Of a stretch of DNA of 64,000 bases, positions 1 to 60,190 are shown one piece after another. Location: the sequence record NC_048170.1. One strand, 5' to 3'. The notes under the pieces are model-generated. The model was given only the letters and a program-made list of their open reading frames with translations, made no database searches and had not been told where the DNA came from. The position numbers and the translations under genes are program-made. The first letter of the stretch is position 1. Each line of letters opens with the position of its first letter. The stretch is from Escherichia phage vB_EcoM_Goslar.

Positions 1-1081
1 TACGCTGATCGCCAGTAAACGTGATCTTCGCTTTAAAGATCAAACCGAATAACGACGTCATGGGATCATACGCAATACAACCGTGATCCAGCGTATCCGT
101 TGTCCGCCATTCTATCCCGACCAACCCGTTAGCGGTATGGCATCGCATATACGCATTAAGGACCATGTCTTCACTGACAACCGCGAAGTTCTCTGTTGAC
201 TGACCGTTGATAATCCAATACATCGGTTGCCAGAGGTTACGCGTACCTTTTGCGTAGCGGTAGGTTGGTGCGCCTTTAGGGTTGCCATTATTGAGATGGA
301 ATACGGCAGTACCTTGATAATGGTCGTTCGTATTAATCGGAACACTGTAAGCATCACCGAGATCCGTACGTTCCACCTTCGTGACTGTTGCGTTTTCAAA
401 CAACCCACGTAGCGCCGGTAAACCGATATCTTCAGGTGCGTTTTCTCGACGAATCGCATCCGCGATGCGGTGGGCTAAGGCGGGGTAAATGGCCTCACCC
501 TGCTGTAGGTTTGCAAGACCTACAAAGCGATCGGGGTCGATGCCAGCAATCAATAACTCGACATCACCCTTCGTTCTATCGTCGTTAAGATATTTCAGTC
601 CGGTAAGGTCAAGATGCTGAATAAGCGACAACAGGTTGTATTTACGGTTTTCAACAGTTAGTACAAGATCGCCTGCCCAAACCAAACTTCCCTCATCCGC
701 TGTTACTTTAACGGATTGTCGGCCTGTGGTAGACGTTGTTGTCGTTTTATTTAATTGTCCTTGTAGGAAGTCGGTTGCGAGGTCAAAGGCAATGCCGTAA
801 CGGTCAGCGACCGCTTGCATGATTTCACGTAACTGGGTATCTTCTTCAATGATAATCTTGATAGGTATTCCCAAGAACGCTTTAGCGAGGTCTCGTTTAA
901 CCAACGAGACGAATACGGATTTGTAGTATCGGCTTCCATCTTTCCCTTTAAAAAGAATGGAGGTTGTTTCGGGTGCCGATAGAACACGTGCAAATTCAAC
1001 ATCGTCGAATGTAAGAGAAAGTCCGTTTTTCTCGTTGACCAATCTTAGTATTTCATTTTGCGCGGTTTCATGTAACTTCAT
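1..1081 (-). CDS. tail fiber / receptor-binding-like protein, partial (3' end beyond window); N-terminal module shared with 6868..7413 and 49134..50585
   Basis: Hand translation of minus strand from ATG at 1081..1079 (MKLHETAQNEILRLVNEKNGLSLTFDDVEF...VKRDLAKAFLGIPIKIIIEED...) checked codon by codon down to about position 360 with no stop and assumed open to position 1; absent from ORF track because no stop lies in the window; N-terminus aligns with the two paralogs. Confidence 0.6.
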   Translation of the reverse strand, partial: MKLHETAQNEILRLVNEKNGLSLTFDDVEFARVLSAPETTSILFKGKDGSRYYKSVFVSLVKRDLAKAFLGIPIKIIIEEDTQLREIMQAVADRYGIAFDLATDFLQGQLNKTTTTSTTGRQSVKVTADEGSLVWAGDLVLTVENRKYNLLSLIQHLDLTGLKYLNDDRTKGDVELLIAGIDPDRFVGLANLQQGEAIYPALAHRIADAIRRENAPEDIGLPALRGLFENATVTKVERTDLGDAYSVPINTNDHYQGTAVFHLNNGNPKGAPTYRYAKGTRNLWQPMYWIINGQSTENFAVVSEDMVLNAYMRCHTANGLVGIEWRTTDTLDHGCIAYDPMTSLFGLIFKAKITFTGDQR

Positions 1082-1922: not shown

Positions 1923-2426
1923 TTACTTACTGATAACCTCAACGGAATTGGGATCAGCGATCAACGCACGATCGGTAGAACAATTGAAGAAGACCATGCC
2001 AACACCATCGCCGTTCGAGTTCAGGGTTGAACTTGCGTAAGACAATGTTGGTTTATTCATGCGGTAGAAGCGTTCGCTGGTTGCGGTATTGAACCCCAGA
2101 TCAACGTAGTCTTTCACCGTGGTATACAACTGGGTGGACTCGAAAACGGTTACCGGAGAGTCGACGGTAAACTGACTACCTTCATCCACAACCAGAACTT
2201 TATCGTTCCAGATTTCAGTGGTTGAAAACTTCGGTTTCCAATGTTCGAATTCCTGGGTTGCGCCCCAGCAGGAATACACAGCGAGATTGCTGTTCTTCTC
2301 AACAGGTTTCAACCCCACCAGTTGTGTCAGGTCTTTATCCAGGTTCGGTAAGCCTTCCAGCGTAGCGCACCCACCCAGAGAAAGCACCATCAACATACCA
2401 AGAATAATCGCGCAAAGTTTCTTCAT
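1923..2426 (-). CDS. putative lipoprotein (signal peptide with lipobox-like LSLGGC)
   Basis: N-terminus MKKLCAIILGMLMVLSLGGCATLEG: basic residues, hydrophobic core, Cys after LGG; directly downstream of tail fiber assembly gene. Confidence 0.6.
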   Translation of the reverse strand: MKKLCAIILGMLMVLSLGGCATLEGLPNLDKDLTQLVGLKPVEKNSNLAVYSCWGATQEFEHWKPKFSTTEIWNDKVLVVDEGSQFTVDSPVTVFESTQLYTTVKDYVDLGFNTATSERFYRMNKPTLSYASSTLNSNGDGVGMVFFNCSTDRALIADPNSVEVISK

Positions 2427-2470: not shown

Positions 2471-2887
2471 TTACTTAGCAGCAGGAAATTCCGGCCAATC
2501 GATATTTGGTGCAGCATCGGTATCGACAGCCGACACCGCGTCAACGTAATCCAAAACGGCGTTAAGTCGGGTCGTTTCTTCCGGAGTCAGTTTTCGCCCA
2601 GCCCGTAATTTTAACTGAATAAGATCGATGGAAGCCAGCGAAGAATCAATCAAAGATTGTTTTATCTGTTCTGCCTCGGCGACAAGTTCTTCGTGTTGCC
2701 GCTCGGGTTCCGGAGGCGCGATAAACTCGCCGTTTGAGTATAACCAACCTATTCCAGGTGACACAGCTGCCGTATCGCTAATGCTAACCAGCTGCTGATT
2801 GTCGAATATATCGAGCTCTGCTTCACCATCGTAAACAATCGTGTTTACTACCACTCCATTTTCAATAACAGCGTATAATGTACTCAT
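2471..2887 (-). CDS. tail fiber assembly protein (Tfa-type chaperone)
   Basis: C-terminus ...LNAVLDYVDAVSAVDTDAAPNIDWPEFP resembles the conserved C-terminal motif of lambda Tfa / Mu U-type tail fiber assembly proteins; start chosen at ATG 2887 (MSTLYAVIENG) forming TAATG overlap with fiber stop; ORF track gives 2471..2911. Confidence 0.7.
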   Translation of the reverse strand: MSTLYAVIENGVVVNTIVYDGEAELDIFDNQQLVSISDTAAVSPGIGWLYSNGEFIAPPEPERQHEELVAEAEQIKQSLIDSSLASIDLIQLKLRAGRKLTPEETTRLNAVLDYVDAVSAVDTDAAPNIDWPEFPAAK

Positions 2888-5800
2888 TACATAAACTCCT
2901 CGATGATGCAAATCCCATTAGCACCACGCCCACCAGGCTTAGCGGTTCCTGAGTAAGAGTTATCGTAAGCACCACCACCACCCGAACCAGGCGCGAGGCC
3001 GTTATGGGCGGTGCCAACACCAGCGCGACCGCCACCGCCCCAATATGACGCACCCCCACATCCACCGACGGCAATAGTACCGGCTTGTCCATCGCTACCG
3101 TCTCCGCCCGGAATGCGTATATCCCCGGTAGCAGGTGCGCCCCCATAGCCACCGCCAGTGTTTGTGACAGTTGTTTTTCCTGCGCCTTGCCCGCCGGGAG
3201 CAGTTAGCAGGGATGCAAATTTACTATCCCCACCCCCGTTCCCAGACGTCGCCCCAGAGCCACCGGAACCACCAGAACCAATTATAACAGAATAACTAGC
3301 AGCTGTTACCGTTATAACCGAAATTACTGTTCCGCCAGCTCCTCCCCCAGCACCAAAAAACGTTTCGCTGTTGGAATAAGCCTGACAGCCACCGCCGCCA
3401 CCGCCGCCACCGGTTATTGTTACTCTAATCCGTTTTGTTCCTTGTGTTGGAGTGTACGTCCCTGACGATGTGAAAACACGCATGTTCAGTAAACGTCCGA
3501 CATATCCGCTAGAATCGGCTAAACCAAGATCTTTAGCTGCTAACGTGATATTAGCTGTACCATCGAAAGGTTTACCGTTAATCGTGCGCGCAGTTTGCAA
3601 CTTCGTCGCCGTGGCTGCGTTCCCTGATGTATTCTGGTTCCCCGCGACGTTAACACCTGGTAGATTGATGTTCGCACTACCGTCGAAAGACACCCCACCA
3701 ATGGTGCGGGCTGTTTTCAGTTTTGTCGCCGTGGCGGCATTCCCCGTAGTGTCTTGGTTTCCTGCTGCGTTAACACCCGGCAGACTGATATTTGCCGTAC
3801 CATCGAACGCGACACCGCCAATCGTCCTTGCCGTTTGTAGTTTTGTCGCCGTGGCGGCATTACCGGTTGTGCTTTGGTTACCGGTGGTGTTTACCCCAGG
3901 TAGGCTGATATTTGCTGTTCCGTCAAATGAAACGCCGCCAATCGTCCTTGCCGTTTGCAACTTCGTTGCGGATGCCGCGTTCCCCGTGGTGTTTTGGTTA
4001 CCTGTTGCATTCACACCAGGGATACTATCCTTAGATGTATAGATCTGTGCCCATTCCGACCAATTCGAATCGGCTGCATCCCGACGAGAACGAAGATAGG
4101 CTGGCGCATGCGCCCCCGATGTACCAGACCATCCAATAAGGATCTCACCTTCACCTACTGCGGTTGCGCCTTTAAGATGAATAATATTGCCGTACGCTGT
4201 AGGGTATCCGTTATTGTACGCTTCATACATCTGGATACCCGTATTGCTACCCTGGGTCGCATTAGCTAAAGCGGTGACCCGTCCCTTGGAAGCGAGCACG
4301 TTAATGCTAAAGCTAATATCAGTTGTACCGTCAAAGGCGACCCCATTAATCCTCCGTGCCGTTTGGAGTTTCGTGGCAGTAGCCGCATTACCAGAAGTGC
4401 TCTGGTTACCCGCTTTGTTCACACCCGGTAAATCAATGTTGGCAGTCCCATCAAACGACACACCCCCTATGGTTCTCGCCGTCTGGAGTTTTGTTGCTGA
4501 ACCGGCGTTTCCGGAAGTGCTTTGATTGCCCGCGGCGTTGACACCAGGTAGGTTAATGCTAGCAGAACCATCAAAAGAAACTCCACCGATCGTAATGGTC
4601 GTTTGCAACTTCGTGGCTGTCGCAGCGTTACCCGTCGTATTCTGATTACCAGCTGCATTGACGCCAGGTAATGCGATATCAGTTGTACCGTCAAAAGCGA
4701 CACCACCGATTTTACGGGCGGTCTGTAGCTTGGTTGCGCTTCCTGCGTTTCCGCTGGTGTCTTGGTTTCCTGCAGCGTTAACACCCGGTAGACTGATGCT
4801 GACCGAACCATCGAAACTCACACCACCGATCGTAACAGCGGTTTTCAATTTCGTGGCAGTAGCTGCGTTACCGGTTGTATTTTGATTGCCTGTCGCATTA
4901 ACGCCCGGTAATGCAATATCCGCTGTTCCGTCAAAGGCAACGCCACCGATTCTACGTGCAGTTTGTAGCTTGGTCGCTGTAGCGGCATTACCGCTGGTAT
5001 TTTGCGTGCCTGCTTTATTTACACCGGGAAGATCGATGTTAGCAGAACCGTCGAAGCTAACGCCACCTATCGTTCTTGCCGTAGCAAGTTTAGCTGCTGT
5101 AGCAGCGGCGTTACCGACTTTTAACCATTCGCCCCATGGACCATCCTGGCCGTTCCATGATGCCGTTAAACTACGTACGTAAATATTGCCGGTACGTACA
5201 GTGTAACGTTGTGTTCCACCGAATTGCCCGGTTGGGAGCACTTCAATGTAACCTGCGGCGTTTGCTTCAGGGAAATTGTGGGCGACGTCCGCGTTCGTCG
5301 TTATTGGTTTAGACCAAATACCCACAGATGCTTCGACTGGACCGAAGGTATTCAGATTTGCGTCCGTCGCCATAGCACCATTAAATTTCAGGTACGTCTC
5401 TGGCGATAATCCGATCGTTTTAGCAAACGCAACTTTATCTACGATATCACTACCGTTATTCCCTGCCTGCAATGCTGTCTTAGCTGCCTTTATGGTTTCT
5501 GTCAATCCAAGATACAGTAAGACCGCATCAACGCTTCCTTTGCTTAGCAGATTCAGACCTGTTGACGTTACGTTAGTTAGCCCGATTTGGTTCCGTCCAG
5601 TAAAATAAGGGAGTTTATTCGCATCTGTTGTTAGGTTAGACCACGCGGTCAGCAACGCGTTCAACGGTTGTTTACCCGCCAACGCATTGGTTACTGTCGT
5701 TGCGAAATTAGGATCGTTCCCTAAAGCTTGAGCCAGCTCATTAAGCGTATTTAGCGCTTCTGGAGACGAGTCGATCAGCGATGCGATAGCACGCATCACA

Positions 5801-6861
5801 AATTCCGTGTTGGCAATCTGTCGACTGCTATCGTTCTCTGCAGCCGTAGGCGCTGCCGGGATACCGGTGAACACAGGGCTATTAAGATCTGCCTTGAGAG
5901 CGATGAGACGTTTAAGTGCGTCGACATCGACTTTCAGGTTTTCCCATCCGATGAGAGAACCACCACTGGCGTTATGATAACGGTTGTACCAGAAGTCGCC
6001 GTTAACGCCAAAAAAGAATATACCTTTCTCTTCGTATTGTGGGCCAGAACTATTTCGTGATGTTTCGATATATTTGATTTCAATAAGACCGCTAAACACC
6101 ACTCCTGGGATTATATTGTTGTTTCCAGCTGACTGTGATACCTGGTAAATCCCCGGGGTTGCGGCTTTAACCCATGTTAAGAATTCTGTTACTCCAGCGG
6201 CACCGCTAAAATTCTTAACGTCGGTAAGTATCGCCCCATAACCGAACATACCGGGTAGAGCCACTCGTTCGCTGGTACGGTCACGAATATCTGTCGCAAC
6301 AACGGGCAATTGTTTACGAACAGCATTAACCGCTTTAGGCGTGGCCGATTTTGTCTCGTCGTCGCTATCGGTTTCATTACTTAGAATAGTTAAACCGCGT
6401 GTAGCAGTAGTTGCATCAGGAAGAAATGCGTTATCCAACACCTTAAGCTGTATTGCACTCGTATTACTAACAACGACATGCACCTGACAGTTAAGAACGC
6501 TGGTTGCGCCTTCGGCAGGCGTAGGCTTATATCTTTCTGGCGCACTGCAGACGGCAATCAGAACACCTTGGTCATCATACAGACCGATCTCACGTACCCA
6601 GAACCCACCTTGACCAGCGGGAATAATACCCTCAACGATAATCCTGGTTGTGCTATCACCATCCGCATGGATATTAGAAACTTCCCCACGATAAACTTCG
6701 TGAACAAGCGCTGTTTGGCTGGCGGTCGGGGTTGGGATCGAGCCGTTACCATCACCAACGGCAAAGTGTGTGATTTTTAGTTTCTCACCGTCGGGAAGTA
6801 ACGCAGCGGTGATACGTTCTGCTCCTTTATCGGTAACTACCGTTATATATGCTGTACTCAT
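2887..6861 (-). CDS. tail fiber protein (1324 aa): P2 gpH-like N-terminal domain, about 11 tandem 40-aa fiber repeats, glycine-rich C-terminal region
   Basis: N-terminus MSTAYITVVTDKGAERITAALLPDGEKLKITHFAVGDGNGSIP...GGFWVREIGLYDDQGVLIAV resembles P2 gpH N-terminus; repeats of the form TARTIGGVSFDGSANIDLPGVNxAGNQNTxGNAATATKLQ; C-terminal GGGGGGGG and GxGG runs. Confidence 0.85.
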   Translation of the reverse strand: MSTAYITVVTDKGAERITAALLPDGEKLKITHFAVGDGNGSIPTPTASQTALVHEVYRGEVSNIHADGDSTTRIIVEGIIPAGQGGFWVREIGLYDDQGVLIAVCSAPERYKPTPAEGATSVLNCQVHVVVSNTSAIQLKVLDNAFLPDATTATRGLTILSNETDSDDETKSATPKAVNAVRKQLPVVATDIRDRTSERVALPGMFGYGAILTDVKNFSGAAGVTEFLTWVKAATPGIYQVSQSAGNNNIIPGVVFSGLIEIKYIETSRNSSGPQYEEKGIFFFGVNGDFWYNRYHNASGGSLIGWENLKVDVDALKRLIALKADLNSPVFTGIPAAPTAAENDSSRQIANTEFVMRAIASLIDSSPEALNTLNELAQALGNDPNFATTVTNALAGKQPLNALLTAWSNLTTDANKLPYFTGRNQIGLTNVTSTGLNLLSKGSVDAVLLYLGLTETIKAAKTALQAGNNGSDIVDKVAFAKTIGLSPETYLKFNGAMATDANLNTFGPVEASVGIWSKPITTNADVAHNFPEANAAGYIEVLPTGQFGGTQRYTVRTGNIYVRSLTASWNGQDGPWGEWLKVGNAAATAAKLATARTIGGVSFDGSANIDLPGVNKAGTQNTSGNAATATKLQTARRIGGVAFDGTADIALPGVNATGNQNTTGNAATATKLKTAVTIGGVSFDGSVSISLPGVNAAGNQDTSGNAGSATKLQTARKIGGVAFDGTTDIALPGVNAAGNQNTTGNAATATKLQTTITIGGVSFDGSASINLPGVNAAGNQSTSGNAGSATKLQTARTIGGVSFDGTANIDLPGVNKAGNQSTSGNAATATKLQTARRINGVAFDGTTDISFSINVLASKGRVTALANATQGSNTGIQMYEAYNNGYPTAYGNIIHLKGATAVGEGEILIGWSGTSGAHAPAYLRSRRDAADSNWSEWAQIYTSKDSIPGVNATGNQNTTGNAASATKLQTARTIGGVSFDGTANISLPGVNTTGNQSTTGNAATATKLQTARTIGGVAFDGTANISLPGVNAAGNQDTTGNAATATKLKTARTIGGVSFDGSANINLPGVNVAGNQNTSGNAATATKLQTARTINGKPFDGTANITLAAKDLGLADSSGYVGRLLNMRVFTSSGTYTPTQGTKRIRVTITGGGGGGGGCQAYSNSETFFGAGGGAGGTVISVITVTAASYSVIIGSGGSGGSGATSGNGGGDSKFASLLTAPGGQGAGKTTVTNTGGGYGGAPATGDIRIPGGDGSDGQAGTIAVGGCGGASYWGGGGRAGVGTAHNGLAPGSGGGGAYDNSYSGTAKPGGRGANGICIIEEFM
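3520..4030. repeat. tandem approx 120-nt coding repeats (array 1, about 4 units) inside tail fiber gene
   Basis: Recurring ttgtcgccgtggcggcattccc... units at about 3600, 3720, 3840, 3960. Confidence 0.7.
4290..5110. repeat. tandem approx 120-nt coding repeats (array 2, about 7 units) inside tail fiber gene
   Basis: Recurring units at about 4370, 4490, 4610, 4730, 4850, 4970, 5090; separated from array 1 by a non-repeat insert. Confidence 0.7.
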
Positions 6862-6867
6862 GGTGTT

Positions 6868-7413
6868 TTATCCTGGATAAATAGTGATGATATCACCAAT
6901 GACGGTTGTGGCACCGGCGTAAAGATGAGCCGGAGATACATCGTGTTGGTTTGTCACAGTAAGATCCAATCGACCACGCCAAACCACGGAGGTATTCGCG
7001 ATGGGGATAGAAATCTTTTTGGATATATCGTCACGAAAATCAATAACAGTGGCAAGGGTAACCGCATCAAAATCAACGTCGGGGTCAAAGACGAACCCGT
7101 ATTGATCTGAAATCGCCCGAATAATCGCATGTATAGTTGTTGTCTCGACGGACTCTAAAACGATTTTTACCGGTATTCCTAAAAATGCCTTCGCGATATC
7201 GCGTCGAGCGTAAACGATAAAACTTTCACCACACCACTTTGTTCCTTCATTTGCTGTGACGATCACTTTTGCCCTGTTAGCACCAGAACTCCCATCCAAG
7301 GTTAATGTAAGATCGGAGTTGCTGAACACGCTACCGTTACGTTGGTTTATCAACGTAATCAGTTCGTCTTTCCATGGCGGGTAAAGTGAACGCATAAGCG
7401 CACCCTCCTCCAA
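6868..7413 (-). CDS. tail fiber-associated protein (181 aa) consisting of the shared N-terminal module
   Basis: MRSLYPPWKDELITLINQRNG...RRDIAKAFLGIPVKIVLES...YGFVFDPDVDF aligns with N-termini of 1..1081 and 49134..50585 proteins; immediately upstream of fiber gene. Confidence 0.6.
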   Translation of the reverse strand: MEEGALMRSLYPPWKDELITLINQRNGSVFSNSDLTLTLDGSSGANRAKVIVTANEGTKWCGESFIVYARRDIAKAFLGIPVKIVLESVETTTIHAIIRAISDQYGFVFDPDVDFDAVTLATVIDFRDDISKKISIPIANTSVVWRGRLDLTVTNQHDVSPAHLYAGATTVIGDIITIYPG

Positions 7414-7600: not shown

Positions 7601-10600
7601 TTAAATTGTTGGTTTTACATCGCGTAATAGGGCGATATAATAGCCTAATCCTCGGAGGATCTCCCCGCTCCAGAAACCAAAATACATTCCGTCTCTGCCG
7701 AGATTAGCGCTATCTGGTGCAGGACTCCATCCACCATTCATTACGTCATCAACGGTGTAGCGGTTGATGTAGTTTTCAACGATTTCGTTATAAGCATTAA
7801 CCGCAACAGAATAGCCTTTATCGTTGGGATGTCCGTACAACATTGCTAACGACGCACCCGCCAACCATAATCCTGCCATATGACCAGTAAAGTCGTTCGG
7901 GATAAAAGCAGGAGGTTTATCCATCGGAAAATCCGTAGGTGATTGATAAGCGTTTTCCTGTTGATACGTAAACAAGAAATCAATCCAATGACTGATGTAA
8001 GTGGTTAACTTCTCAGGGACAGCCAAACCACGATCGAGCAGTCCAGCATAAAGCCTCACCGCTGAAAAGAAAGCCCTCGGCTGATAACCAGACCATGCTG
8101 TCTGATCGCCGAAATGGTACATCGTAAAATCATTAACTTTTGATCCGCTTGGCGCATCCCAACGATCCCACACGTACGCACTTGCCCCTGGCCCTAAAAC
8201 CCCGAATTTCTGATAATACCACTGCTGTGAGTCATACCAGAAATTCACAACATTCTGAATCATGAGGTCACGTCGTTCAGCCGATACGTCCATATCCAGG
8301 AAGACCCATGGATGCTGGTAGCCGGGATAAGGCTGACCGCGCCAACTGTCGAACGTCGGTGCGTTAGGGATATAGTTGTTAGAGAACGGAATAATACCCG
8401 GAGTATAAGGCAATGGATCCAGACGTTGGTTGACAATCGTACAATCGCCAACACGCAATGTGCCCTCTGCCTCAAAGATTGCTTTTAACGTAAACAGCAT
8501 GGTATATCCGTCATCCGTGGTGTAAGTTGACGGTGGATTGTTGATGGCGTAAAGCTTAAATACCCCTTCAGCGATATCGCTGCCATCAGGCAAGAACAGA
8601 ATTTCAGTTGAACCGTCGCCCCACACAGGTGCGGAAGGTTTAGGGTCAGTATCAGCATGGCCAGGTTGATACCCTGAGAGCCTCCATCCGTTCGCCGAAA
8701 GCGTCAATGTATTTCTTGCTGTGGTGGCCGGTAGCATATACCACCATCGCCAACCATTTGCATCTTCTACACGAACGTTGTAGTCAATCGACGCGAAATA
8801 ACTGACCTGTCTTACGATCTGTTTTGCGGTTGGATTGAATTCAAATTGCCCGCCTGCCGCAGTAAGCTGCGCTTTTAAGAACAACCCATCCCAGGAATCT
8901 TCCGCTGCTTCGCTGAATTCTGTTGTGATTGCGACATCGTCTTTCCAGCCGACTTTATCAGCCGATATCAACACAGAACCTGTAACAGCATCACCGGTTG
9001 GCGTTGAAACTTCATCAACCGCATCAGCAGGAATCAACGAGCCTATTTTGAAATCCCATCCTTTCGGTTCAGCGCTGGAAGGTAATACCAGCTTGTACGT
9101 TTTGGCTTTCGCTTCGGTTTTGTCCAAAGAAAGCGAAAGTGAAATCTCAACCGGAATTGCAATACCTGCCGTATCCTTACCTCCGCAGGTTACACGAAGA
9201 ATTGAATCACGATTGACGCGGAACGGAATGGCCTGCTGTTCAAGATAAATTTGTGCTGAAGATGCTTGAATCACGATCCAGCCATCGGCATCACGTGTGA
9301 TTGTGAACGGTGCTTTCGATGGATAGGTATACGTGTAAGCGATACCATCGGTGTCGTAACGATCGGTTCCTTTTACCTGACGGAAGAACTTATCGTTGGC
9401 GTCGATACGGGTATATTCTTCAATCGTAAACAAAGATGCCTTGTACGCTTTCTGATAACGCTCCTGCTGCGTTAAACGGTATAAGGTGTAGGCTGCTTCA
9501 CAAAACCACTGTTCAGCGTCTGACGCGTTTCCCATGTAGTCTCTGGTGACCGGCACCTGGATCGGTCGGTTATGCTGACACTCGTTCGTTTTGATGAGGT
9601 ATCCGCCATATTCGACAGGAACGCGGGGTGCCCACGCAACCAAATAAGAACCGCTGACGGATTTATCTTTGAGTACGATGGTACCTACCTCATCGTCAGT
9701 ACACGCTTCAAGATCGTCCCCGTCAGCACTTACGTAACGTTTTGTGCGTAACGCAACTTTCTCGATAGGGAACACCGTACCCTTTGTATCCCAGTCAATC
9801 GTCCCATCATCATTGGTTTTGAACACATCGGCGTTCAAATTCTGCCAGCCGAGTTTACCCTCATAGACCTGAACAACAAGATCCATGTATTCCCCGAACG
9901 TTGGTGCCCCATGTGTTATTTTCCCGATACCGTTGGTGAATGTAACCGCTGTGTCATGGAAACCCCCGTGTGTTGGGTAATCGTCTTTTGCAAGAGGATA
10001 ATGAGCCAACACCGGTTGCTTACCATTAACGATCCAGTTAGCGATCCAGCGTGTCGGTGTATCCGGTGGTTCAAGGCCTGCGTAGAACGCTTTTATATAC
10101 GCATCGAACGATGACTCTGCTAATGCGAGATAATGCGCTTTAAGCTTGGTATCATCCGTTGTATGACTGAATATACCCGCACCCAGAATTAACAACGACT
10201 GTCCTTCTGTTGTTGCGTCACCATCCGGTTGTGCTTCTTGTCGTGTTGCTGCAATGAAATGGCGGTTGTTTACCATCACCCCGCTTTCATTTAACACGTA
10301 ATGATCGGTTTCTGGATCGGTAAACGTTCCTGTGTTTCGGGTTAAGAATCTTGCATGACCATAACCAACGAAATTAACCGGCGACGCTGTAATCATCCAT
10401 TTACCGATAAGTTGAGCAACATCATTATAACGCTCGGATGCGGTGATTTGTTTCACGTACCAGTCTTTATGGTTAAATGTCCAAAGCAGGAAGTAATAAG
10501 TTGTATCGATTTCCATCACCGGGAACGTTGGTGTTAACGGCTCCAATGTTAAGTAGTTGCTCCAGTCAATCTGTCCGCCAACAACCGATGGGGTAATCTC

Positions 10601-11197
10601 TAATAACTGACACCATTCATAACGGTCCGGTACACTACTGGACGTTGTTGGTAAAGGTAACTTGTATACACCAGTACGATTCAGATTGAGTGCTTTTCTA
10701 GCCGATCCTAAATCAACATAAATGCTCGATGATACGCTTGCACTATATGCCCCCAAAGCACCTAGCGTTGACCGATACATTGAGATGAACAACGTATCTT
10801 TCCAGTAAGGGTTATCCTTGGTTGGTTCTAAAGCGATTTGTGCGGAGATGCTGTTCCATGTCCCTAACTGGTATGTTGCATTTAAAGATTCTTCCGTGAA
10901 ATAACTTTCTGCAATTGCCAGATGGAACCGCTCGTTCAATAATGCGAGTGCGGCGCGTCCTGAGATATCTTCATTACCCGTTTCCTTCTTCATGATTGCG
11001 CCGAATGGAAACAGTGTCGCGAATGACCGTTTTGGTTTATTAACCGTAACCGTCCCCGTGTAGTTTCCAACACCGTCAAGTTTTTGACTATCGCCAACAG
11101 CAGTGACTGCGATACCATCAACCGGGATATCTGTTTTGTTTAGTGTATTGAGTTGGTCAACCAGATCCTGCTTATCGTCAGGTAAGAATGTCGCCAT
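7601..11197 (-). CDS. large structural protein (1198 aa), putative tail fiber / baseplate component
   Basis: Long uninterrupted minus-strand ORF in tail module; product assigned by context only. Confidence 0.5.
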   Translation of the reverse strand: MATFLPDDKQDLVDQLNTLNKTDIPVDGIAVTAVGDSQKLDGVGNYTGTVTVNKPKRSFATLFPFGAIMKKETGNEDISGRAALALLNERFHLAIAESYFTEESLNATYQLGTWNSISAQIALEPTKDNPYWKDTLFISMYRSTLGALGAYSASVSSSIYVDLGSARKALNLNRTGVYKLPLPTTSSSVPDRYEWCQLLEITPSVVGGQIDWSNYLTLEPLTPTFPVMEIDTTYYFLLWTFNHKDWYVKQITASERYNDVAQLIGKWMITASPVNFVGYGHARFLTRNTGTFTDPETDHYVLNESGVMVNNRHFIAATRQEAQPDGDATTEGQSLLILGAGIFSHTTDDTKLKAHYLALAESSFDAYIKAFYAGLEPPDTPTRWIANWIVNGKQPVLAHYPLAKDDYPTHGGFHDTAVTFTNGIGKITHGAPTFGEYMDLVVQVYEGKLGWQNLNADVFKTNDDGTIDWDTKGTVFPIEKVALRTKRYVSADGDDLEACTDDEVGTIVLKDKSVSGSYLVAWAPRVPVEYGGYLIKTNECQHNRPIQVPVTRDYMGNASDAEQWFCEAAYTLYRLTQQERYQKAYKASLFTIEEYTRIDANDKFFRQVKGTDRYDTDGIAYTYTYPSKAPFTITRDADGWIVIQASSAQIYLEQQAIPFRVNRDSILRVTCGGKDTAGIAIPVEISLSLSLDKTEAKAKTYKLVLPSSAEPKGWDFKIGSLIPADAVDEVSTPTGDAVTGSVLISADKVGWKDDVAITTEFSEAAEDSWDGLFLKAQLTAAGGQFEFNPTAKQIVRQVSYFASIDYNVRVEDANGWRWWYMLPATTARNTLTLSANGWRLSGYQPGHADTDPKPSAPVWGDGSTEILFLPDGSDIAEGVFKLYAINNPPSTYTTDDGYTMLFTLKAIFEAEGTLRVGDCTIVNQRLDPLPYTPGIIPFSNNYIPNAPTFDSWRGQPYPGYQHPWVFLDMDVSAERRDLMIQNVVNFWYDSQQWYYQKFGVLGPGASAYVWDRWDAPSGSKVNDFTMYHFGDQTAWSGYQPRAFFSAVRLYAGLLDRGLAVPEKLTTYISHWIDFLFTYQQENAYQSPTDFPMDKPPAFIPNDFTGHMAGLWLAGASLAMLYGHPNDKGYSVAVNAYNEIVENYINRYTVDDVMNGGWSPAPDSANLGRDGMYFGFWSGEILRGLGYYIALLRDVKPTI

Positions 11198-11210
11198 TAT
11201 TTACTCCACC

Positions 11211-12041
11211 TTAATCGTAACTAAAATAAAGTTTGCTGCTGACGCCGCTATCGGAACGAGGTTTTAATACCAGAACAGAGCTTCCGAACGACGGAAGTAT
11301 TGGAACATCTAAATCGTTCGCATCGGCAACTTTTCCATTATAAACGACATTGGCTGTTGTGATGAGTTCCCAAGCTAAGGTATAACTCATTGAAATCAGC
11401 GACGAGGCTAAACGGAATGCGTTGTATCCTTCTGGAGTATCTCCAACCGACATCGAACGTATCGCATCTTGCGGCGGTAAATTTAGCTTGATGCCGTAGG
11501 TGCTGAATGTGTGGAAATCCCCTTGTTTACTATCTTCTGGATAATACGAGGTTAGCGGTTCTCGCACCGTAATCAGTTCGCTAATATCGGTACTTACATC
11601 TTTTCGTGCGAGGAATTGAAACGTACCGTGCCATGATGCCGACGCGTCAGAACGAACGGGAACAGATATGGTTTTCTCGCCGCTTTCAAATTTAACCTGT
11701 GACGCTAACGCTGAAGAATCAAAGATCGTTAAATCGATCTTCAACCCATACTTCTTAAACAGCTGCGTTAAGCAGTCTGCTATCGTCGTCTTATCAGCAA
11801 CGACAATAAAAGGTTGGTGTTTGATAAAGAGCTTATTAATGTCTCGACGTTGAAGATAAACCTGTACGGGGTCTTCGACGTAGTAAACCGATTGTGGTGC
11901 AGGGGCTATAGAAAGGCGTAACCGACCCGATGCACCATACCAGGCTGGCGTTAACGTAATGTCTGACAGGGACAACGGATGCTGGAGATAGGCGTTTATT
12001 TTAGATAACACTTCCTCCTGCCATGATGCTTCAGGATACAT
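11211..12041 (-). CDS. hypothetical protein (276 aa), tail-module associated
   Basis: ORF track; first gene after strong terminator at 12098..12161. Confidence 0.5.
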   Translation of the reverse strand: MYPEASWQEEVLSKINAYLQHPLSLSDITLTPAWYGASGRLRLSIAPAPQSVYYVEDPVQVYLQRRDINKLFIKHQPFIVVADKTTIADCLTQLFKKYGLKIDLTIFDSSALASQVKFESGEKTISVPVRSDASASWHGTFQFLARKDVSTDISELITVREPLTSYYPEDSKQGDFHTFSTYGIKLNLPPQDAIRSMSVGDTPEGYNAFRLASSLISMSYTLAWELITTANVVYNGKVADANDLDVPILPSFGSSVLVLKPRSDSGVSSKLYFSYD

Positions 12042-21660: not shown

Positions 21661-21688
21661 CGGCATAAGCCCTCCCATGCCGGGAGGG
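21661..21688 (-). terminator. hairpin CCCTCCC-atgcc-GGGAGGG downstream of 21694..22122
   Basis: Inverted repeat 21670..21688; weak U-tract (CUUAUGCC) on minus strand. Confidence 0.45.
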
Positions 21689-36972: not shown

Positions 36973-37005
36973 AGACGGCATAAAAGCCTCCCATTACGGG
37001 AGGCT
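36973..37005 (-). terminator. rho-independent terminator (8-bp stem AGCCTCCC/GGGAGGCT, loop attac, UUUUAUG on minus strand)
   Basis: Inverted repeat 36985..37005 just downstream of 37018..37566. Confidence 0.6.
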
Positions 37006-44961: not shown

Positions 44962-44988
44962 CAGCATAAACCCTCCCCGAAGGGAGGG
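44962..44988 (-). terminator. terminator-like hairpin CCCTCCC-(UUCG loop)-GGGAGGG followed by UUUAUG on minus strand
   Basis: Inverted repeat 44971..44988 immediately downstream of 44999..45556. Confidence 0.55.
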
Positions 44989-46888: not shown

Positions 46889-46923
46889 CTCCTCCCCAGG
46901 AAAGGTGTGGGGAGGAGTTTTTA
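46889..46923 (+). promoter_or_regulatory. terminator-like hairpin plus T5 run on plus strand, upstream of helicase gene (possible attenuator or boundary element)
   Basis: ctcctcccc-aggaaaggtgt-ggggaggag followed by ttttt; lies in divergent intergenic region. Confidence 0.4.
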
Positions 46924-46952: not shown

Positions 46953-49034
46953 ATGTTGGATAGAATCAATCGTTTAATGAACCGAATAACGGTTAAAAAT
47001 CAGAGTAACAATAGCGTGCATATCGGGGGTATCGATGCCTGGCGTCTTTCAGATGACATTCAGCGAATATGGGGTACCTCCCGATTTATGAAACATATGT
47101 TTCGTAATTTCTCTTCTAGTGGACTCAGTCTCCACAACTTTTACCTTCTCGATTTCGTTTATATTCTCGAAACGATCGTCGAAGCAAAGAATACCCGCAG
47201 TAATAAACGCATGCTGAAACACCTTATTGAGGTACTGCTGCAGGAAACCTGGTTGCAAAATACCACAATCGAGCAACCTGCAATCCTCGATAAAGCACGC
47301 ATGAACAAAATGCTAACGCTCTCCCTGTTCGATTATCAAGATGAGTTTATCGACATCTATAACCGTAACGTACCTAAATATCGACTGAAAGGATACGTGT
47401 GTGCGATGGGTGCGGGTGCTGGTAAAACAATCACCGCATTGGCTTTAAGCGCCGCAATGAACGTCGACGTATTTGTGGTCTGCTGTCCTAAGAACACCAT
47501 GCGTTCAGCATGGCAATCCGATGTAAACAAAGCCATCGTTGACCTCGCGACAGAAACCGCATTCTGGTCAGATACAATGCCACCATCACAGCTGCAGAAA
47601 AGCGATAAGTATTATTTTCTGCATTACGAGTCGATGGGTTTATTAAACGATGTAATGATCAAGCATAAACGCACCGCGAAGCGCGTGTTGATCGTGGTTG
47701 ATGAAAGCCATAACTTCAACGACAAGAACAGCCAACGTTCCCAACGACTGGTTGATCTCGTACAGACGATGCGTCAGACCATGAATGCGGATGTGCATGT
47801 CTTGTTTATGTCGGGTACGCCCGTTAAACAGATGGGTTCTGAGATGATCCCCTGTTTAGGTTGTATCGATCCGATGTTCCAAGGACAAGTGGTCGATAGC
47901 TTCAAAGCAATTTACGGTTTAACCAGCAGTCGCGCTAACGATATCCTCAGACATCGTCTTGGGTTCATGATGCATGTCGTACCTAAAGAGGCTTACCGTA
48001 AAACCCGTCCGGAAGTTCAGGATGTTTACGTGAAGCTTCCTAATGGTAGCGATTATACCATCTCGAGTATCCGCGACGACATGGCGATATTTGTACGCGA
48101 TCGGGCGAAGTATTACAAGGATAACTGGGGGCATTACAGAAAGATTTTTGATGACGCCTTGGACTACTATCGCAAGACTATTCGTACCGATGGTGAACGT
48201 AAAGAGCTATCTCGATACGAATCGATTGTTGCTCGTTTCCAGAAAGGTTACGACCCCGTCAGAGACAAAGAAGATGCGATGTTCTGCAACGTGTTTGAAA
48301 AACGAGCGATCATGCCGGTTCTTCCTTCTGATTTAAGGGTTGCTTTCAAAGACGCCAAGAGCGTCATCAAGTACGTTGGGTTGAAAATTCAGGGTGAAGC
48401 GTTGGCGCGTGTTCTAGGTGCAGCCCGCATTCGGTGTCATGTCGACATGGTGGAGTACATCGACTTCGAAGGGTACATCAACAACGCTGAAGCCAAGGTG
48501 TTGATCTTCACGTCGTACGTTCAGGTGGTTGAGCGCGTCGACAACATGCTTCGTGATGCGGGTTTCTTACCTGAACCCATTTACGGGAAGACCAACAAAA
48601 ACATCAACCAGATACTTGCTCGTCTACGCGATGATCCTGACAGCGGTCCCGCTATCGCAACATTTGATAGCTTAGCTGAAGGGGTTCCGATGCTGATGTG
48701 TAACGTCGGCCTTTTCCTGAACAATCCATGGCGCTCATCCGATGAAATCCAAGCCATCAGCCGTCTCGACCGTGTCGGGCAAACGCAGCCTGTTCGGATT
48801 TATCGTTTCATGTTGGATACAGGAAGCGAGGGTAACGTTTCTACACGTAGCCACGAAATCATGGAGTTAAGTCGACAGCTTGTTGAAGAAATCACGGGTG
48901 TCAAATATGTAGTGAACAAGCAAGACGATGTTAACTTGCAAGAAACGTTGGCGATGGAAGGATACGATCAATACGTTACCGTAAACACCACGGAATACGA
49001 TATTAAACCGCGACCTGCATTCTTGGAATGGTGA
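46953..49034 (+). CDS. SNF2-like superfamily II helicase/ATPase
   Basis: Walker A GAGAGKT, DESH box IVVDESHNF, SGTP motif, motif VI QAISRLDRVGQTQPVRIYRF; start placed at ATG 46953 (ORF track start 46905 is GTG inside hairpin). Confidence 0.75.
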   Translation: MLDRINRLMNRITVKNQSNNSVHIGGIDAWRLSDDIQRIWGTSRFMKHMFRNFSSSGLSLHNFYLLDFVYILETIVEAKNTRSNKRMLKHLIEVLLQETWLQNTTIEQPAILDKARMNKMLTLSLFDYQDEFIDIYNRNVPKYRLKGYVCAMGAGAGKTITALALSAAMNVDVFVVCCPKNTMRSAWQSDVNKAIVDLATETAFWSDTMPPSQLQKSDKYYFLHYESMGLLNDVMIKHKRTAKRVLIVVDESHNFNDKNSQRSQRLVDLVQTMRQTMNADVHVLFMSGTPVKQMGSEMIPCLGCIDPMFQGQVVDSFKAIYGLTSSRANDILRHRLGFMMHVVPKEAYRKTRPEVQDVYVKLPNGSDYTISSIRDDMAIFVRDRAKYYKDNWGHYRKIFDDALDYYRKTIRTDGERKELSRYESIVARFQKGYDPVRDKEDAMFCNVFEKRAIMPVLPSDLRVAFKDAKSVIKYVGLKIQGEALARVLGAARIRCHVDMVEYIDFEGYINNAEAKVLIFTSYVQVVERVDNMLRDAGFLPEPIYGKTNKNINQILARLRDDPDSGPAIATFDSLAEGVPMLMCNVGLFLNNPWRSSDEIQAISRLDRVGQTQPVRIYRFMLDTGSEGNVSTRSHEIMELSRQLVEEITGVKYVVNKQDDVNLQETLAMEGYDQYVTVNTTEYDIKPRPAFLEW

Positions 49035-49133
49035 TTAAGAAGCTCTGCCTGACATCAGGCAGAGCTTCATGCTGTATTTGTTGCAAGATCGTATGACGTA
49101 TATGCGTCGTACTTATTTAATAGGACAGAATAA

Positions 49134-50585
49134 ATGAAACTCAAACAAAGCTGGAAAGACGAACTCCTTGCGCTAGTAAACAGCAAAAACAGCTTACAAC
49201 TGACGTTAGACGATGTAAAATTTGAACTGACGGCACCGGTAAGCGAAGTGCCTGGAACGGTTGTTGTTACGATCAAACCGAACGACGATAGCCGTTACTT
49301 TAACGAGCAATCTCTGACCTACGTTCGTCGAGACATCGCTAAAAACTTCACCGGGATCCCGTTACGGGTTATCGTTAAAAATGATACCGCCGTAAGGGAT
49401 ATCATCAATACGATCGCTGAACGTTACGGATTAGTATTTGACACAACCGTCGACTTCCTCGAATCCGAGCTGAATAAACAAATTACGTTCGCAGACACCG
49501 GTATTAAAGACATTACGGTTCCGGTTGCAAACACGTCTTATGTTTGGGCGGGTAATCTTCAGTTCAATATCGCTAACGATACGTTGAGCTTGATTACGAT
49601 CATCAAGCAAACCAATCTTACGAATCTGGTTTATCTGGATGGTGTTGAAGCTGACACATCGGGTTCGTTACTATTAGCAACAACCTCGGTTATCGGCGAA
49701 AACGGAAATGCCGAAACAACTGAAGGTGTCCTTGACGCCGCGTACTTCCAGAATATCCTGAACGTCATGGTTCGTTATGGTGATATTAACAGCGAACAAA
49801 TGCAACAAGCAATGCAGACAATTAACCAAAGCGAAGACGCTCGTAGAGTAGAAGTGCGGTCATACGGTGACGCCGAGTTACTGGTAACCACCAAGAAAGA
49901 TTGGGTTATCGGTAGCCTTAAGGGTGCTATGGTTGTTGGTCACGCTTCACCTAAACCGATCCAATACGTTCTTAAAACAAAAGGCGGCACCATTATATTG
50001 TCATTAGATGGTTGGACAAATGTCAATATCGATTGGGGTGATGGGAATAAGACGACGCAGGACTCAGGCGATAATGAATATCAGCACAATTATGCTGACA
50101 CTACAGAACGTACAATCGTCGCTACGGGTACCCCTACCAACACTGAAGATACAGACGTACAGCAAAGCTTCACCGGTGGTAACATCACTGAAATCGTTGA
50201 CTGGAACAACGGATTACCTAAGGCCCCATCATTCCTTGCGGCGAACAGTTTAATTAAGGTTCCCGATTATATCCCGGCATATTGGACGTCGTTAGAAAGT
50301 ATGTTTACGCGATGCAGCGCTATTAACGACGTGAGCATCACCAAATGGAACACCCGCAACGTTACTTCAATGAAGGACCTCTTCTACGGTTGCGCTACGT
50401 TCAACCAACCGATCGGTTCGTGGGATGTTTCGTCTGTTAAGAATGCAGACAATATGTTGTCTGGGTGCTTCGCGTTCAATCAGGATCTGAGTGGTTGGAC
50501 ATTCCCGGCAGGCACTTCACACATCAACTACGACGGCATGACCGCCGCATGGCAGCCTGATCACAAACCACGCTTCACCGAGTAA
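49134..50585 (+). CDS. receptor-binding-like protein: shared N-terminal module plus C-terminal DUF285-like repeats
   Basis: N-terminus MKLKQSWKDELLALVNSKNS...RRDIAKNFTGIPLRVIVKND...YGLVFDTTVDF aligns with 6868..7413 and 1..1081; C-terminus WNTRNVTSMKDLFYGCATFNQPIGSWDVSSVKNADNMLSGCFAFNQDLSGW. Confidence 0.6.
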   Translation: MKLKQSWKDELLALVNSKNSLQLTLDDVKFELTAPVSEVPGTVVVTIKPNDDSRYFNEQSLTYVRRDIAKNFTGIPLRVIVKNDTAVRDIINTIAERYGLVFDTTVDFLESELNKQITFADTGIKDITVPVANTSYVWAGNLQFNIANDTLSLITIIKQTNLTNLVYLDGVEADTSGSLLLATTSVIGENGNAETTEGVLDAAYFQNILNVMVRYGDINSEQMQQAMQTINQSEDARRVEVRSYGDAELLVTTKKDWVIGSLKGAMVVGHASPKPIQYVLKTKGGTIILSLDGWTNVNIDWGDGNKTTQDSGDNEYQHNYADTTERTIVATGTPTNTEDTDVQQSFTGGNITEIVDWNNGLPKAPSFLAANSLIKVPDYIPAYWTSLESMFTRCSAINDVSITKWNTRNVTSMKDLFYGCATFNQPIGSWDVSSVKNADNMLSGCFAFNQDLSGWTFPAGTSHINYDGMTAAWQPDHKPRFTE

Positions 50586-50606
50586 AAAAAAAAATAGTTA
50601 GCATAT

Positions 50607-50645
50607 CTTCCTCCCTACCCATAACGGGCGGGGAGGAAGGTTTAT
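50607..50645 (+). terminator. terminator between convergent genes (near-perfect 14-bp stem, loop ataac, then GUUUAU)
   Basis: cttcctccctaccc-ataac-gggcggggaggaag then gtttat; follows stop of 49134..50585. Confidence 0.6.
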
Positions 50646-50656
50646 GACGATTTAAT

Positions 50657-50995
50657 TTAGAACCAGAGTTCTTTCATGAAGTAGGCTTCCACATCGTAGA
50701 TAAGCCATTCGTCAGGGATTTCTAAAGGATCGTCTTCGGTTAAGGTCAGCATGTGTAAGGCGAACGCACGCTTAATATCGTTCAGCAGTTTCTCGTCGTC
50801 GTAACCTTCTGGTAGTTTACGGTCTACCAGCTGGGTTTGTTTATAGACATCGCGGAACGCTTCAGGGTTGTGTTTATCCATCGGGAATTGTTCAGCAGCC
50901 TGAACCATCGAAAGCGTCCAGCTTACAACATTGTAACGCTCACCGTTAATTTCACTGAACTGATCATCGATTAAACAAATTTGTTGTACGTTCAT
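50657..50995 (-). CDS. hypothetical protein (112 aa)
   Basis: ORF track. Confidence 0.4.
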   Translation of the reverse strand: MNVQQICLIDDQFSEINGERYNVVSWTLSMVQAAEQFPMDKHNPEAFRDVYKQTQLVDRKLPEGYDDEKLLNDIKRAFALHMLTLTEDDPLEIPDEWLIYDVEAYFMKELWF

Positions 50996-51953: not shown

Positions 51954-53528
51954 TTACAATTCAAAATCTTCATCGATAACACGCTGGGTAAGCACCTTGT
52001 CGCTGAAGAACTCCACCTTGCGCTGATGGTATTTACGGTGCGCTTCGATAGATGTACATACCAGATACCAGAACGTTGGTGTCATTCCTTCGAACTTCCC
52101 TTTCAGCTGACGTAGGCGTCCCAATACCTGAATGTTACCGGTTCGTGACCCCATCGCTAACGTCATGAACGTCATCACCAAGTCAGGGAGGTCGATACCT
52201 GTACCTGCCGATTTCACCGTCGTAACGCTGATATCGTTATCCAACAAGACCATGAAATCTTCTTCAGCAGTATAAGGACCAATCTCTAACTCAGGAATAC
52301 GTTCACTGAGATAATGCGATAACGACTTACACATATCAACGGTTGCACAATACACCAGCATCTTCATGCCTTCCTGATACTGGTTCATGAAACCTTTGAT
52401 GATAACGGTATAGATAAAGTTGAAATAGGCGAGTTTGAGTTGCTTGTTCTTCATGATAGACTGTTCGAATATCGTGTGAGAATAAGAACCCCCAAAGCCT
52501 TTGTATCTGACTTTATCTGTACTGCGTAATCGATACGTTACCGCATTTACCGCAATGTATTTCTTGTATTCGCATTTCGCATAACGTGCTTCTTTCGGAT
52601 ACATCAAATACAACATCCGTTCGATGAACGGATCGTCGGACACTGCCGTTGCTGACAGATAGATGATTTCCGGAATATTCGCGTAACACTTCACTTTGAA
52701 CAAGAAATGCAATGCTTCGTGACATTCATCATGGATTAACAACCCAATGCCTGTTTTCTCCCAGAACTCGACAGGATGGAAAACATAAGGTGCGACACAG
52801 TTGTTCTTTTCATAATCGGTTATGTATCTCTGAAACATGTTCAGCGAGAATAACGCAATTTTGAAATCCAGCTCACCTTGTTCCACCAACGTCTGGAATT
52901 CCAGCATGCTGTAACGAGGAATGTCTGGATGTGGTGGGTCAGATTGAGCTGTGCCACGTATCTCGATAACATCGCCCGGTTCCATACCGAAGAAACTTAG
53001 CAGTGAGCTACGCCAACCAGGCATGTATCTCGGTGACAGGATAATACCCGTCCGTACACCGCGTCGGAAGGTGATCTCCTGCGACATGGCTGTTTTACCA
53101 GACCCCGTGCCTGCGGTGTTTAAGCTCATTCTGAAGGGGGTATCCTTACCCCCGTCCATGTACTCCAACCATTCTTGTTGATCTTCACGCCACGGAAACT
53201 TCCATTTCTTTACGAACTCCACTTCCTTACCTGGCACTGGATCGTGATAAACGATTTCCAACCACTCTTTTCGGATTCCTCGAGAGAAGATAAAATCCAA
53301 AAACGATTTCAACTGTTCGCGGAGTAAGTATACCTCGCTATAATCGCTTCTCGCTGCGGCATACGTGTTTATGGTATCGGTAACCATTCTCCGTGTACGA
53401 GGGTCACGCCGTTTCCTCAGATGCAAACAACGGTCTCGAAGGTAATGGCCGATAAGATGGGCAAATCGAAGTCCGTATCCGCTCAGCCTCATGCCATGCG
53501 AGAAGACGTCGATACGAGCTAACTTCAT
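51954..53528 (-). CDS. superfamily II DExH-box helicase
   Basis: Motif I GTGSGKT, motif II LIHDECHE, motif III LSATAV, motif V AGTGIDLPD, motif VI QVLGRLRQ. Confidence 0.65.
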   Translation of the reverse strand: MKLARIDVFSHGMRLSGYGLRFAHLIGHYLRDRCLHLRKRRDPRTRRMVTDTINTYAAARSDYSEVYLLREQLKSFLDFIFSRGIRKEWLEIVYHDPVPGKEVEFVKKWKFPWREDQQEWLEYMDGGKDTPFRMSLNTAGTGSGKTAMSQEITFRRGVRTGIILSPRYMPGWRSSLLSFFGMEPGDVIEIRGTAQSDPPHPDIPRYSMLEFQTLVEQGELDFKIALFSLNMFQRYITDYEKNNCVAPYVFHPVEFWEKTGIGLLIHDECHEALHFLFKVKCYANIPEIIYLSATAVSDDPFIERMLYLMYPKEARYAKCEYKKYIAVNAVTYRLRSTDKVRYKGFGGSYSHTIFEQSIMKNKQLKLAYFNFIYTVIIKGFMNQYQEGMKMLVYCATVDMCKSLSHYLSERIPELEIGPYTAEEDFMVLLDNDISVTTVKSAGTGIDLPDLVMTFMTLAMGSRTGNIQVLGRLRQLKGKFEGMTPTFWYLVCTSIEAHRKYHQRKVEFFSDKVLTQRVIDEDFEL

Positions 53529-56276: not shown

Positions 56277-56306
56277 CCCTCCCACCTCCACATGGGAGAG
56301 GGAGGG
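56277..56306 (-). terminator. hairpin CCCTCCC-acctccacatgggaga-GGGAGGG, U-rich 3' flank on minus strand
   Basis: Inverted repeat; loop shares cacatggg with hairpin at 57135..57163. Confidence 0.45.
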
Positions 56307-60155: not shown

Positions 60156-60190
60156 CCCTCCCGCAACGTAAGGCGTAGGGAGGGCATTTA
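60156..60190 (+). terminator. hairpin CCCTCCC-15 nt loop-GGGAGGG then cattt, between convergent genes
   Basis: Inverted repeat read directly. Confidence 0.45.

Follow-up and report, generated by a model that had tools for sequence, protein, structure and literature searches.

What does a jumbo phage of E. coli do with a protein that ends in leucine-rich repeats (LRRs) of a bacterial surface-protein type, and how did its gene come to lie away from the tail genes? The question is raised by gp161 (49134..50585, plus strand) of Escherichia phage vB_EcoM_Goslar (Goslar), a nucleus-forming member of the Chimalliviridae (genome MK327938.1, 237,307 bp). The gene lies in the window analysed here, a 64,000-nucleotide stretch of sequence record NC_048170.1. 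Its product is present in purified virions and joins a conserved N-terminal module to a C-terminal payload which varies sharply among related phages and which, in one relative, shares a recombined tract with a tail-module paralogue. A role in host recognition is probable, with reservations that are given below.

The open reading frame (ORF) is real as called. It encodes 483 amino acids (aa), and 483/483 residues are identical to Goslar_00161 (YP_009820846.1) in a pairwise comparison; the two also share a 90% cluster. The computed mass of 53,387.1 Da equals the value for Goslar gp161 in Table S4 of a cryo-electron microscopy preprint on Goslar (bioRxiv 10.64898/2026.04.21.720040). The window also codes for a split multisubunit RNA polymerase gene. 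Homologues of this gene are found in 309 jumbo-phage records, and its best match in the phage collection, which does not include Goslar, has ~32% identity. A megablast search with the 46.8-50.7 kb region gave zero matches in the same phage collection, in E. coli complete genomes and in plasmids.

It should be noted that gp161 is not new as a DUF7941-LRR virion protein. RefSeq already names it, and the 2026 preprint covers both its virion-associated DUF7941 placement and a proposed role in host recognition; the domain call as such adds nothing. What this analysis adds is the comparative evidence: a fixed N-terminal module with a variable payload, and a 159-nt tract shared between paralogues. 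The added value is modest; this evidence was not seen in the parts of the preprint consulted. The gene is laid out as follows:

49122-49125, plus strand: AGGA ribosome-binding site ahead of gp161.
49134..49691, plus strand: residues 1-186, DUF7941 N-terminal globular domain and linker, the assembly module (Pfam PF25613).
49692..50207, plus strand: residues 187-358, a helical segment and then beta-sandwich domains with a WGDG...HxY motif (AlphaFold2 model, BFVD).
50208..50585, plus strand: residues 359-483 and the stop codon, LRR solenoid and C-terminal cap.
50286-50501, plus strand: DUF285/PARCEL repeats, aa 385-456 (Pfam PF03382).

Residues 4-186 match Pfam DUF7941 (PF25613) with 87.9 bits, against a cut-off of 27. 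The match covers only profile positions 5-192 of 276; gp161 is thus without the DUF7941 C-terminal globular domain, and the payload takes its place. DUF7941 is a chimallivirus-specific family according to the preprint, and gp161 is encoded by a chimallivirus genome. Ten members are listed there for Goslar (gp22, 23, 31, 33, 34, 86, 91, 92, 93 and 161) and three for phiKZ (gp126, gp127 and gp143). gp161 is one of three members which carry extra carbohydrate-binding, hydrolase and/or LRR domains and for which host recognition is proposed. An exhaustive HMMER search with the N-terminal domain of gp161 found just 68 cluster representatives among 1.84 billion proteins. When 67 of these relatives (gp161 included) were scanned, 64/67 matched DUF7941 and 12/67 also contained DUF285. 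The fusion is therefore recurrent and not unique to gp161. Other relatives bear Ig-like, Calx-beta, LRR_5 or NCTSP TIM-barrel domains.

A profile built from eight N-terminal domains has a single credible match in the PDB, phiKZ gp127 (chain 9xqd_0). The match is weak (E=0.0039, 19.9 bits) and aligns positions 10-158 with 15-162. In the preprint, phiKZ gp126-gp127 has been fitted into the outer peripheral baseplate, and purified Goslar gp22 assembles into filaments; a 'DUF7941 fibre cloud' for host recognition is proposed there from the gp22 filaments and the phiKZ fit.

The C-terminal part was described in the initial annotation as a set of DUF285-like repeats, with the peptide WNTRNVTSMKDLFYGCATFNQPIGSWDVSSVKNADNMLSGCFAFNQDLSGW (residues 405-455) as the example. 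This description holds. Residues 385-456 match Pfam DUF285 (PF03382) with 78.5 bits (cut-off 25; E=4.5e-22) over profile positions 1-71 of 120. Three 25-residue units can be read from the translation (aa 381-404, 405-429 and 430-454), followed by a C-terminal cap; units of ~25-26 residues fit the pattern W-x-V-x-x-M-x-x-F-x-x-C-x-x-FNQ. Two NCBIfam models give scores under their thresholds for naming, the PARCEL model TIGR02167 (26.8 bits, cut-off 30) and NF045896 (53.9, cut-off 500), so that the repeat type is recognisable and remains below the level at which a name is assigned. Two imperfect DNA palindromes lie within the coding sequence of gp161, at 50397-50428 and 50118-50141. The first sits in a DUF285 repeat (FNQPIGSW, around CGATCG) and recalls the definition of PARCEL, 'palindromic amphipathic repeat coding element'.

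An AlphaFold2 model of gp161, made with 30 homologues, is confident for aa 180-483 (predicted local distance difference test, pLDDT, ~85-96). Helices are predicted at ~aa 200-237 and beta-sandwich domains at aa 238-358, and the LRR part, aa 360-480, folds as a solenoid in the model. The top fold match in BFVD is a Goslar 'tail protein' of 870 aa, and next come proteins with PKD domains and BspA proteins, from other phages and from giant viruses. The beta-sandwich region has zero Pfam matches at E<=10 and is therefore named Ig-like only. A PKD assignment for aa 273-358, which was based on the WGDG...HxY motif and one BFVD match, was rejected; Pfam gave no PKD match at E<=10. The N-terminus of the protein, MKLKQSWKDELLALVNSKNS, is hydrophilic and is part of DUF7941; no signal peptide or lipoprotein anchor was seen on it, as judged without a signal-peptide predictor.

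The initial annotation had asked whether the protein is virion-associated, and it is. The virion data are published liquid chromatography-tandem mass spectrometry results for the identical protein (Table S4 of bioRxiv 10.64898/2026.04.21.720040), which were looked up and not measured here. In purified virions gp161 is represented by 27 peptides with 53.8% coverage, at ~111 copies per virion (74-174). One of the peptides, AFNQDLSGWTFPAGTSHINYDGMTAAWQPDHKPR, lies at the end of the LRR domain. Copy numbers of the neighbours are ~10.6 per virion, a low value, for the helicase gp160 and ~127 per virion for gp162, the product of the gene downstream.

How gp161 varies among Goslar-like phages was determined as identity along the genes, from direct comparisons and global MAFFT alignments; 21 kb was compared with contig L006 (ABIYVL010000002.1). 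Flanking genes are 89-94% identical at the nucleotide level. The gp161 N-terminal domain (49134..49583) is 92% identical, and identity falls to 55-64% over 49584..50585; no other stretch of the 21 kb varies as much as the payload. The same division is seen at the protein level. Across 18 orthologues, N-terminal domains are 88-98% identical (~95% for residues 1 to ~185 among Goslar-like phages overall), against values down to 25-55% for payload domains; the break is sharp and lies near aa 184, essentially where the Pfam DUF7941 match ends. A conserved anchor with a divergent distal part is the architecture of modular phage receptor-binding proteins, and gp161 has it. Full-length gp161 orthologues form more than 50 clusters, and the contigs that carry them reach 235-247 kb. 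Genomes of Goslar-like phages, 235-247 kb long, are frequent in bacterial assemblies (with the labels E. coli, Salmonella, Shigella and Enterobacter) and in those made from raw sequencing runs; a phage isolate exists for only one of them. The four Goslar-like contigs examined, which come from assemblies of bacteria and from sequencing runs, are among the 'persistent virulent phages' of bioRxiv 10.1101/2024.12.31.630880.

The N-terminal module of gp161 recurs in three genes of the window with 32-40% identity (tblastn; Pfam agrees). The initial annotation was thus right to call gp161 a paralogue in which the repeats are fused to a shared phage N-terminal module. These genes belong to the tail module, where DUF7941 paralogues alternate with very large genes:

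2..1081, minus strand: DUF7941 paralogue, N-terminal 360 aa, which runs off the window; probably gp86, 870 aa (tblastn 40%, Pfam 155.6 bits, full-length model match).
1923..2426: gp088, with a computed mass of 18,410.8 Da that equals the published value for Goslar gp088.
2887..6861: tail fibre gene (Pfam Phage_tail_fib, Phage_fiber_2 and Gly_rich_2).
6868..7413, minus strand: gp91 (coding part 6868..7395), a short DUF7941 paralogue with N-terminal domain and linker only (Pfam 57.4 bits; tblastn).
7601..11197: gp92, 1198 aa, which adjoins gp93; counted as DUF7941 in the preprint, with a Pfam match here of only E=0.047.
11211..12041, minus strand: gp93, a divergent DUF7941 paralogue of 276 aa (tblastn, Pfam).

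The numbering of the tail-module genes follows the mass match of gp088. The gene at 2..1081 is taken as gp86 from this numbering, and its length of 870 aa from a related cluster and from the top BFVD fold match.

Other Goslar-like phages carry, in their tail-fibre module, a class of DUF7941-DUF285 paralogues of 584 aa (e.g. P0092, CAUIQD010000007.1). This class has the same domain order as gp161 and ~46% identity to it over 92% of the length; it differs by about four more LRR repeats, which are in register. What stands between the orthologues of gp94 and gp91 differs: in Goslar this slot holds gp93 and gp92 (window 7601-12041), in a relative one 584-aa gene (L002:10001-11755). gp91 is 86% identical to its L002 orthologue. 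The tail-fibre gene has 967 aa in the relative with the 584-aa slot gene versus 1324 aa in Goslar.

In one relative, CAUIQD010000007.1, the two loci have recombined. Its gene beside the helicase, P0034, and its tail-module gene, P0092, share a tract of 53 residues and 159 nucleotides (nt) which is 100% identical (L003:10901-11059 and L002:10904-11062), and the flanks of the tract are roughly 55% identical. Identity over 159 nt amid such flanks indicates gene conversion between the paralogues. Mosaicism, paralogue exchange and variation of the slot are, as far as sequence comparison goes, patterns of host-recognition genes. Receptor binding by gp161 is a plausible and reasonable reading of them.

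The proposed mechanism combines these patterns with the published model. In that model, residues 1 to ~185 of gp161 would attach to the peripheral baseplate and join head-to-tail with other DUF7941 proteins; the DUF7941 proteins, with gp22 and gp23 as bulk subunits, would build long flexible filaments. The payload (aa ~186-483: the helical segment, the Ig-like beta-sandwiches and the three-repeat LRR domain of DUF285/BspA type) would be displayed outward, where it would bind a ligand on the host surface and help in the first contact with the cell. Behind the fixed assembly module this payload is exchanged or diversified, and so evolves in the manner of a host-recognition cassette. That gp161 displays its payload on a filament cloud, at ~100 copies per virion, and so binds a host-surface ligand and aids first contact, is somewhat more probable than all other readings together.

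Several points weigh against it. The AlphaFold2 model has low confidence in the DUF7941 part, with pLDDT <50 for aa 64-175. The filament cloud is a proposal of the preprint, in which polymerisation was shown for gp22 only and the placing of gp161 in filaments is based on predicted structures. Receptor binding could instead be the task of gp90, a classical tail fibre, or of gp86 and gp92, DUF7941 proteins that also have additional domains. A relation between payload variant and host genus was looked for in the source names of the assemblies, and no correlation was found; payload variants with 92-97% identity are shared by assemblies that bear the labels E. coli, Enterobacter, Salmonella and Shigella. 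Finally, the receptor-binding protein of Goslar is listed as unknown beside the receptor obtained from the host screen.

That screen, which was genome-wide and done in K-12, indicates that Goslar needs the outer core of lipopolysaccharide (LPS) (GluII); hits include galU, hldE and waaF. Since the receptor has been mapped and the receptor-binding protein is unassigned, gp161 is a concrete candidate that can be tested cheaply. A more specific version of the host-recognition reading would have the payload recognise the LPS outer core, with ~100 copies on micron-long DUF7941 filaments and with a specificity that is re-assorted by gene conversion between helicase-side and tail-module genes. This version is speculative and, all parts taken together, unlikely. 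If it were true, persistent jumbo phages would possess a two-locus, self-recombining host-recognition system in which an LRR fold serves as the receptor-binding domain.

In cellular organisms, LRR proteins of the BspA type act as adhesins to host tissue. The payload of gp161, with its Ig-like and BspA-type LRR domains, might likewise bind gut mucus or glycoproteins of the animal host; it would then keep virions where their hosts live and would not set host range. The independence of payload variants from host genus agrees with this, as does the fact that Goslar-like phages are mostly known from enterobacterial isolates. However, sharp diversification behind a conserved anchor and exchange between paralogues typify arms races over bacterial receptors, and adhesion to mucus or animal surfaces is considered quite unlikely, a little more so than recognition of the LPS core.

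A second possibility is a mainly architectural role: gp161 would serve as a structural or spacing subunit, in the DUF7941 filaments or at the peripheral baseplate, and its LRR domain would contact other virion proteins, for example gp162, and not a cell. LRRs are general modules for protein-protein interaction, and the convergent neighbour gp162 is itself a virion protein with a similar copy number. Were the payload purely an interface to a structural partner, its sequence ought to be conserved. It is instead the most variable part of the 21 kb compared, while the gp162 gene has ~89% nucleotide identity with L006, and this counts against a structural role, which is slightly less probable again than binding to mucus. 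For gp162 as such, it may be observed that its near-equal copy number (~127 vs ~111) would allow it to be a partner of gp161.

The third possibility concerns origin. The initial annotation observed that gp161 is separated from the tail module, lies on the other strand, has an SNF2-like helicase gene as its neighbour and is flanked by hairpins. All of this is seen in the sequence, and gp161 and the helicase gene are the only long genes that the window has on its plus strand. The arrangement was taken there as a sign that the gene had been acquired as a separate cassette, and this is not supported. The features of the locus are:

46889..46917, plus strand: hairpin CTCCTCCCCA-loop-TGGGGAGGAG followed by TTTTT, directly 5' of the helicase gene; CCTCCC...GGGAGG family.
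46953..49034, plus strand: gp160, SNF2/DEAD-like helicase, 693 aa (Pfam ResIII/SNF2/Helicase_C; phrog_62, E=5.5e-88).
49039..49112, plus strand: two hairpins in the gap between the helicase gene and gp161, at 49039-49068 (13-14 perfect pairs) and 49091-49112 (z -5.99 when folded together); they look like a terminator or processing site.
50607..50639, both strands: hairpin between the convergent genes gp161 and gp162, CCTCCC...GGGAGG family (z -6.46 on the plus strand, -4.82 on the minus strand); likely a bidirectional terminator.
50657..50995, minus strand: gp162, 112 aa, acidic, convergent with gp161; its computed mass, 13,394.0 Da, is the value given for YP_009820847.1 in the published table, and it has zero family matches.

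The case for a recently acquired foreign cassette (a moron), made up of the plus-strand island or of gp161 alone, bounded by hairpins and without relation to the structural programme of the phage, has some substance. gp161 lies 37 kb from the tail-fibre module and on the minority strand, hairpins are found at all three boundaries, and the closest helicase neighbourhoods in other genera are without a DUF7941 gene at that position. The DUF285 segment alone has a GC content at third codon positions (GC3) of 0.636, which is reached by 0.3% of 99-codon windows. Composition of the whole genes is nevertheless typical of the window: the check on GC and codon usage proposed in the initial annotation gave z values of 0.07 to 1.3 for the plus-strand genes. 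For gp161, z(GC) is 0.07, z(GC3) 0.93 and z(codon log-likelihood) +0.39; the helicase is similar, and local GC3 reaches 0.626 within this core gene too.

The helicase does not look foreign either. gp160 is a chimallivirus core gene with full-length homologues in 203 phage records, and in two distant relatives, Proteus phage 10 and Klebsiella phage Eowyn, it likewise stands as an island on the opposite strand, which makes this orientation ancestral. The pair of helicase gene and gp161 is kept in 4/4 Goslar-like contigs examined (L001, L003, L006 and L007), and both gp160 and gp161 are virion components. The start of gp160 is the ATG at 46953: 693 aa are called in relatives, and with this start the computed mass, 79,836.9 Da, is the same as the Table S4 value for YP_009820845.1. 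The start of the mechanical ORF, a GTG at 46905, falls inside the upstream hairpin.

Nor are the hairpins particular to the island. They belong to a genome-wide CCTCCC...GGGAGG family, with 7 copies in the window vs 0.02 expected by chance; those examined are all intergenic. The copies are:

21671-21687, CCTCCC...GGGAGG hairpin.
36987-37003, CCTCCC...GGGAGG hairpin.
44972-44987, CCTCCC...GGGAGG hairpin.
46891-46915, CCTCCC...GGGAGG hairpin.
50610-50636, CCTCCC...GGGAGG hairpin.
56278-56305, CCTCCC...GGGAGG hairpin.
60157-60183, CCTCCC...GGGAGG hairpin.

The stem of the copy upstream of the helicase has a compensatory A>G / T>C change in L006, and the hairpin downstream of gp161 has a pair-restoring stem change in a relative. 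The hairpins look like boundaries of transcription units, not insertion scars; a possible function is termination or RNA processing in transcription by the polymerases of the phage itself. Scans for sigma-70 promoters and simple terminators did not rise above shuffled sequence and are unsuited to a phage with its own RNA polymerases; zero promoters were assigned.

The closest full-length relative of gp161 completes the argument against recent acquisition. It is the 584-aa paralogue class of this lineage's own tail module, and this suggests, from protein comparison, that gp161 arose by duplication within the phage lineage. A foreign cassette is largely refuted and very improbable. Least credible of all is an injected effector that acts on a host protein in the manner of the LRR domains of IpaH, SspH and SlrP: matches to such proteins reflect the generic LRR fold at 5-10% identity, and gp161 carries the N-terminal domain of a family assigned to the outer baseplate and is not a member of PF12699, the family of injected inner-body proteins.

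Two further observations were made near the locus. A run of 12 A (50586-50597) starts within the TAA stop codon of gp161. On the other strand it forms a T-run ~15 nt past the hairpin common to gp161 and gp162; it is kept in two relatives, where its length differs by one base. The gene after gp163 (window 51954-53528), which lies beside an RNA polymerase subunit gene, encodes 524 aa in Goslar, L001 and L003 and 753 aa in L006 (12823-15084) and L007 (12806-15067). This could be a length polymorphism or a difference in start site.

Display of a host-binding payload by a DUF7941 module, the reading preferred here, may be set beside several kinds of known system. With the DUF7941 family gp161 shares the N-terminal domain, the linker and association with the virion. 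It differs from gp22 and gp23, which, according to the preprint, are bulk filament subunits of ~580 and ~2140 copies without a payload. It resembles modular phage receptor-binding proteins in that the anchor is conserved and the distal part hypervariable, with a sharp recombination breakpoint at ~aa 185; it differs from them in that features of a trimeric fibre or spike were not detected and in that its gene lies outside the tail module. DUF285-type domains have already been annotated in other jumbo phages, namely pir03, N1M2, Aeromonas D3 and the Lak phages. In repeat pattern and LRR solenoid fold, gp161 is like the DUF285/PARCEL/BspA-type LRR proteins of Mycoplasma, Listeria, other bacteria and large viruses, although it has just three repeats and its NCBIfam PARCEL scores are under the cut-offs. 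The bacterial surface proteins of this type are held by a signal peptide or lipoprotein anchor, whereas display of the same kind of domain in gp161 would be achieved through a phage assembly domain.

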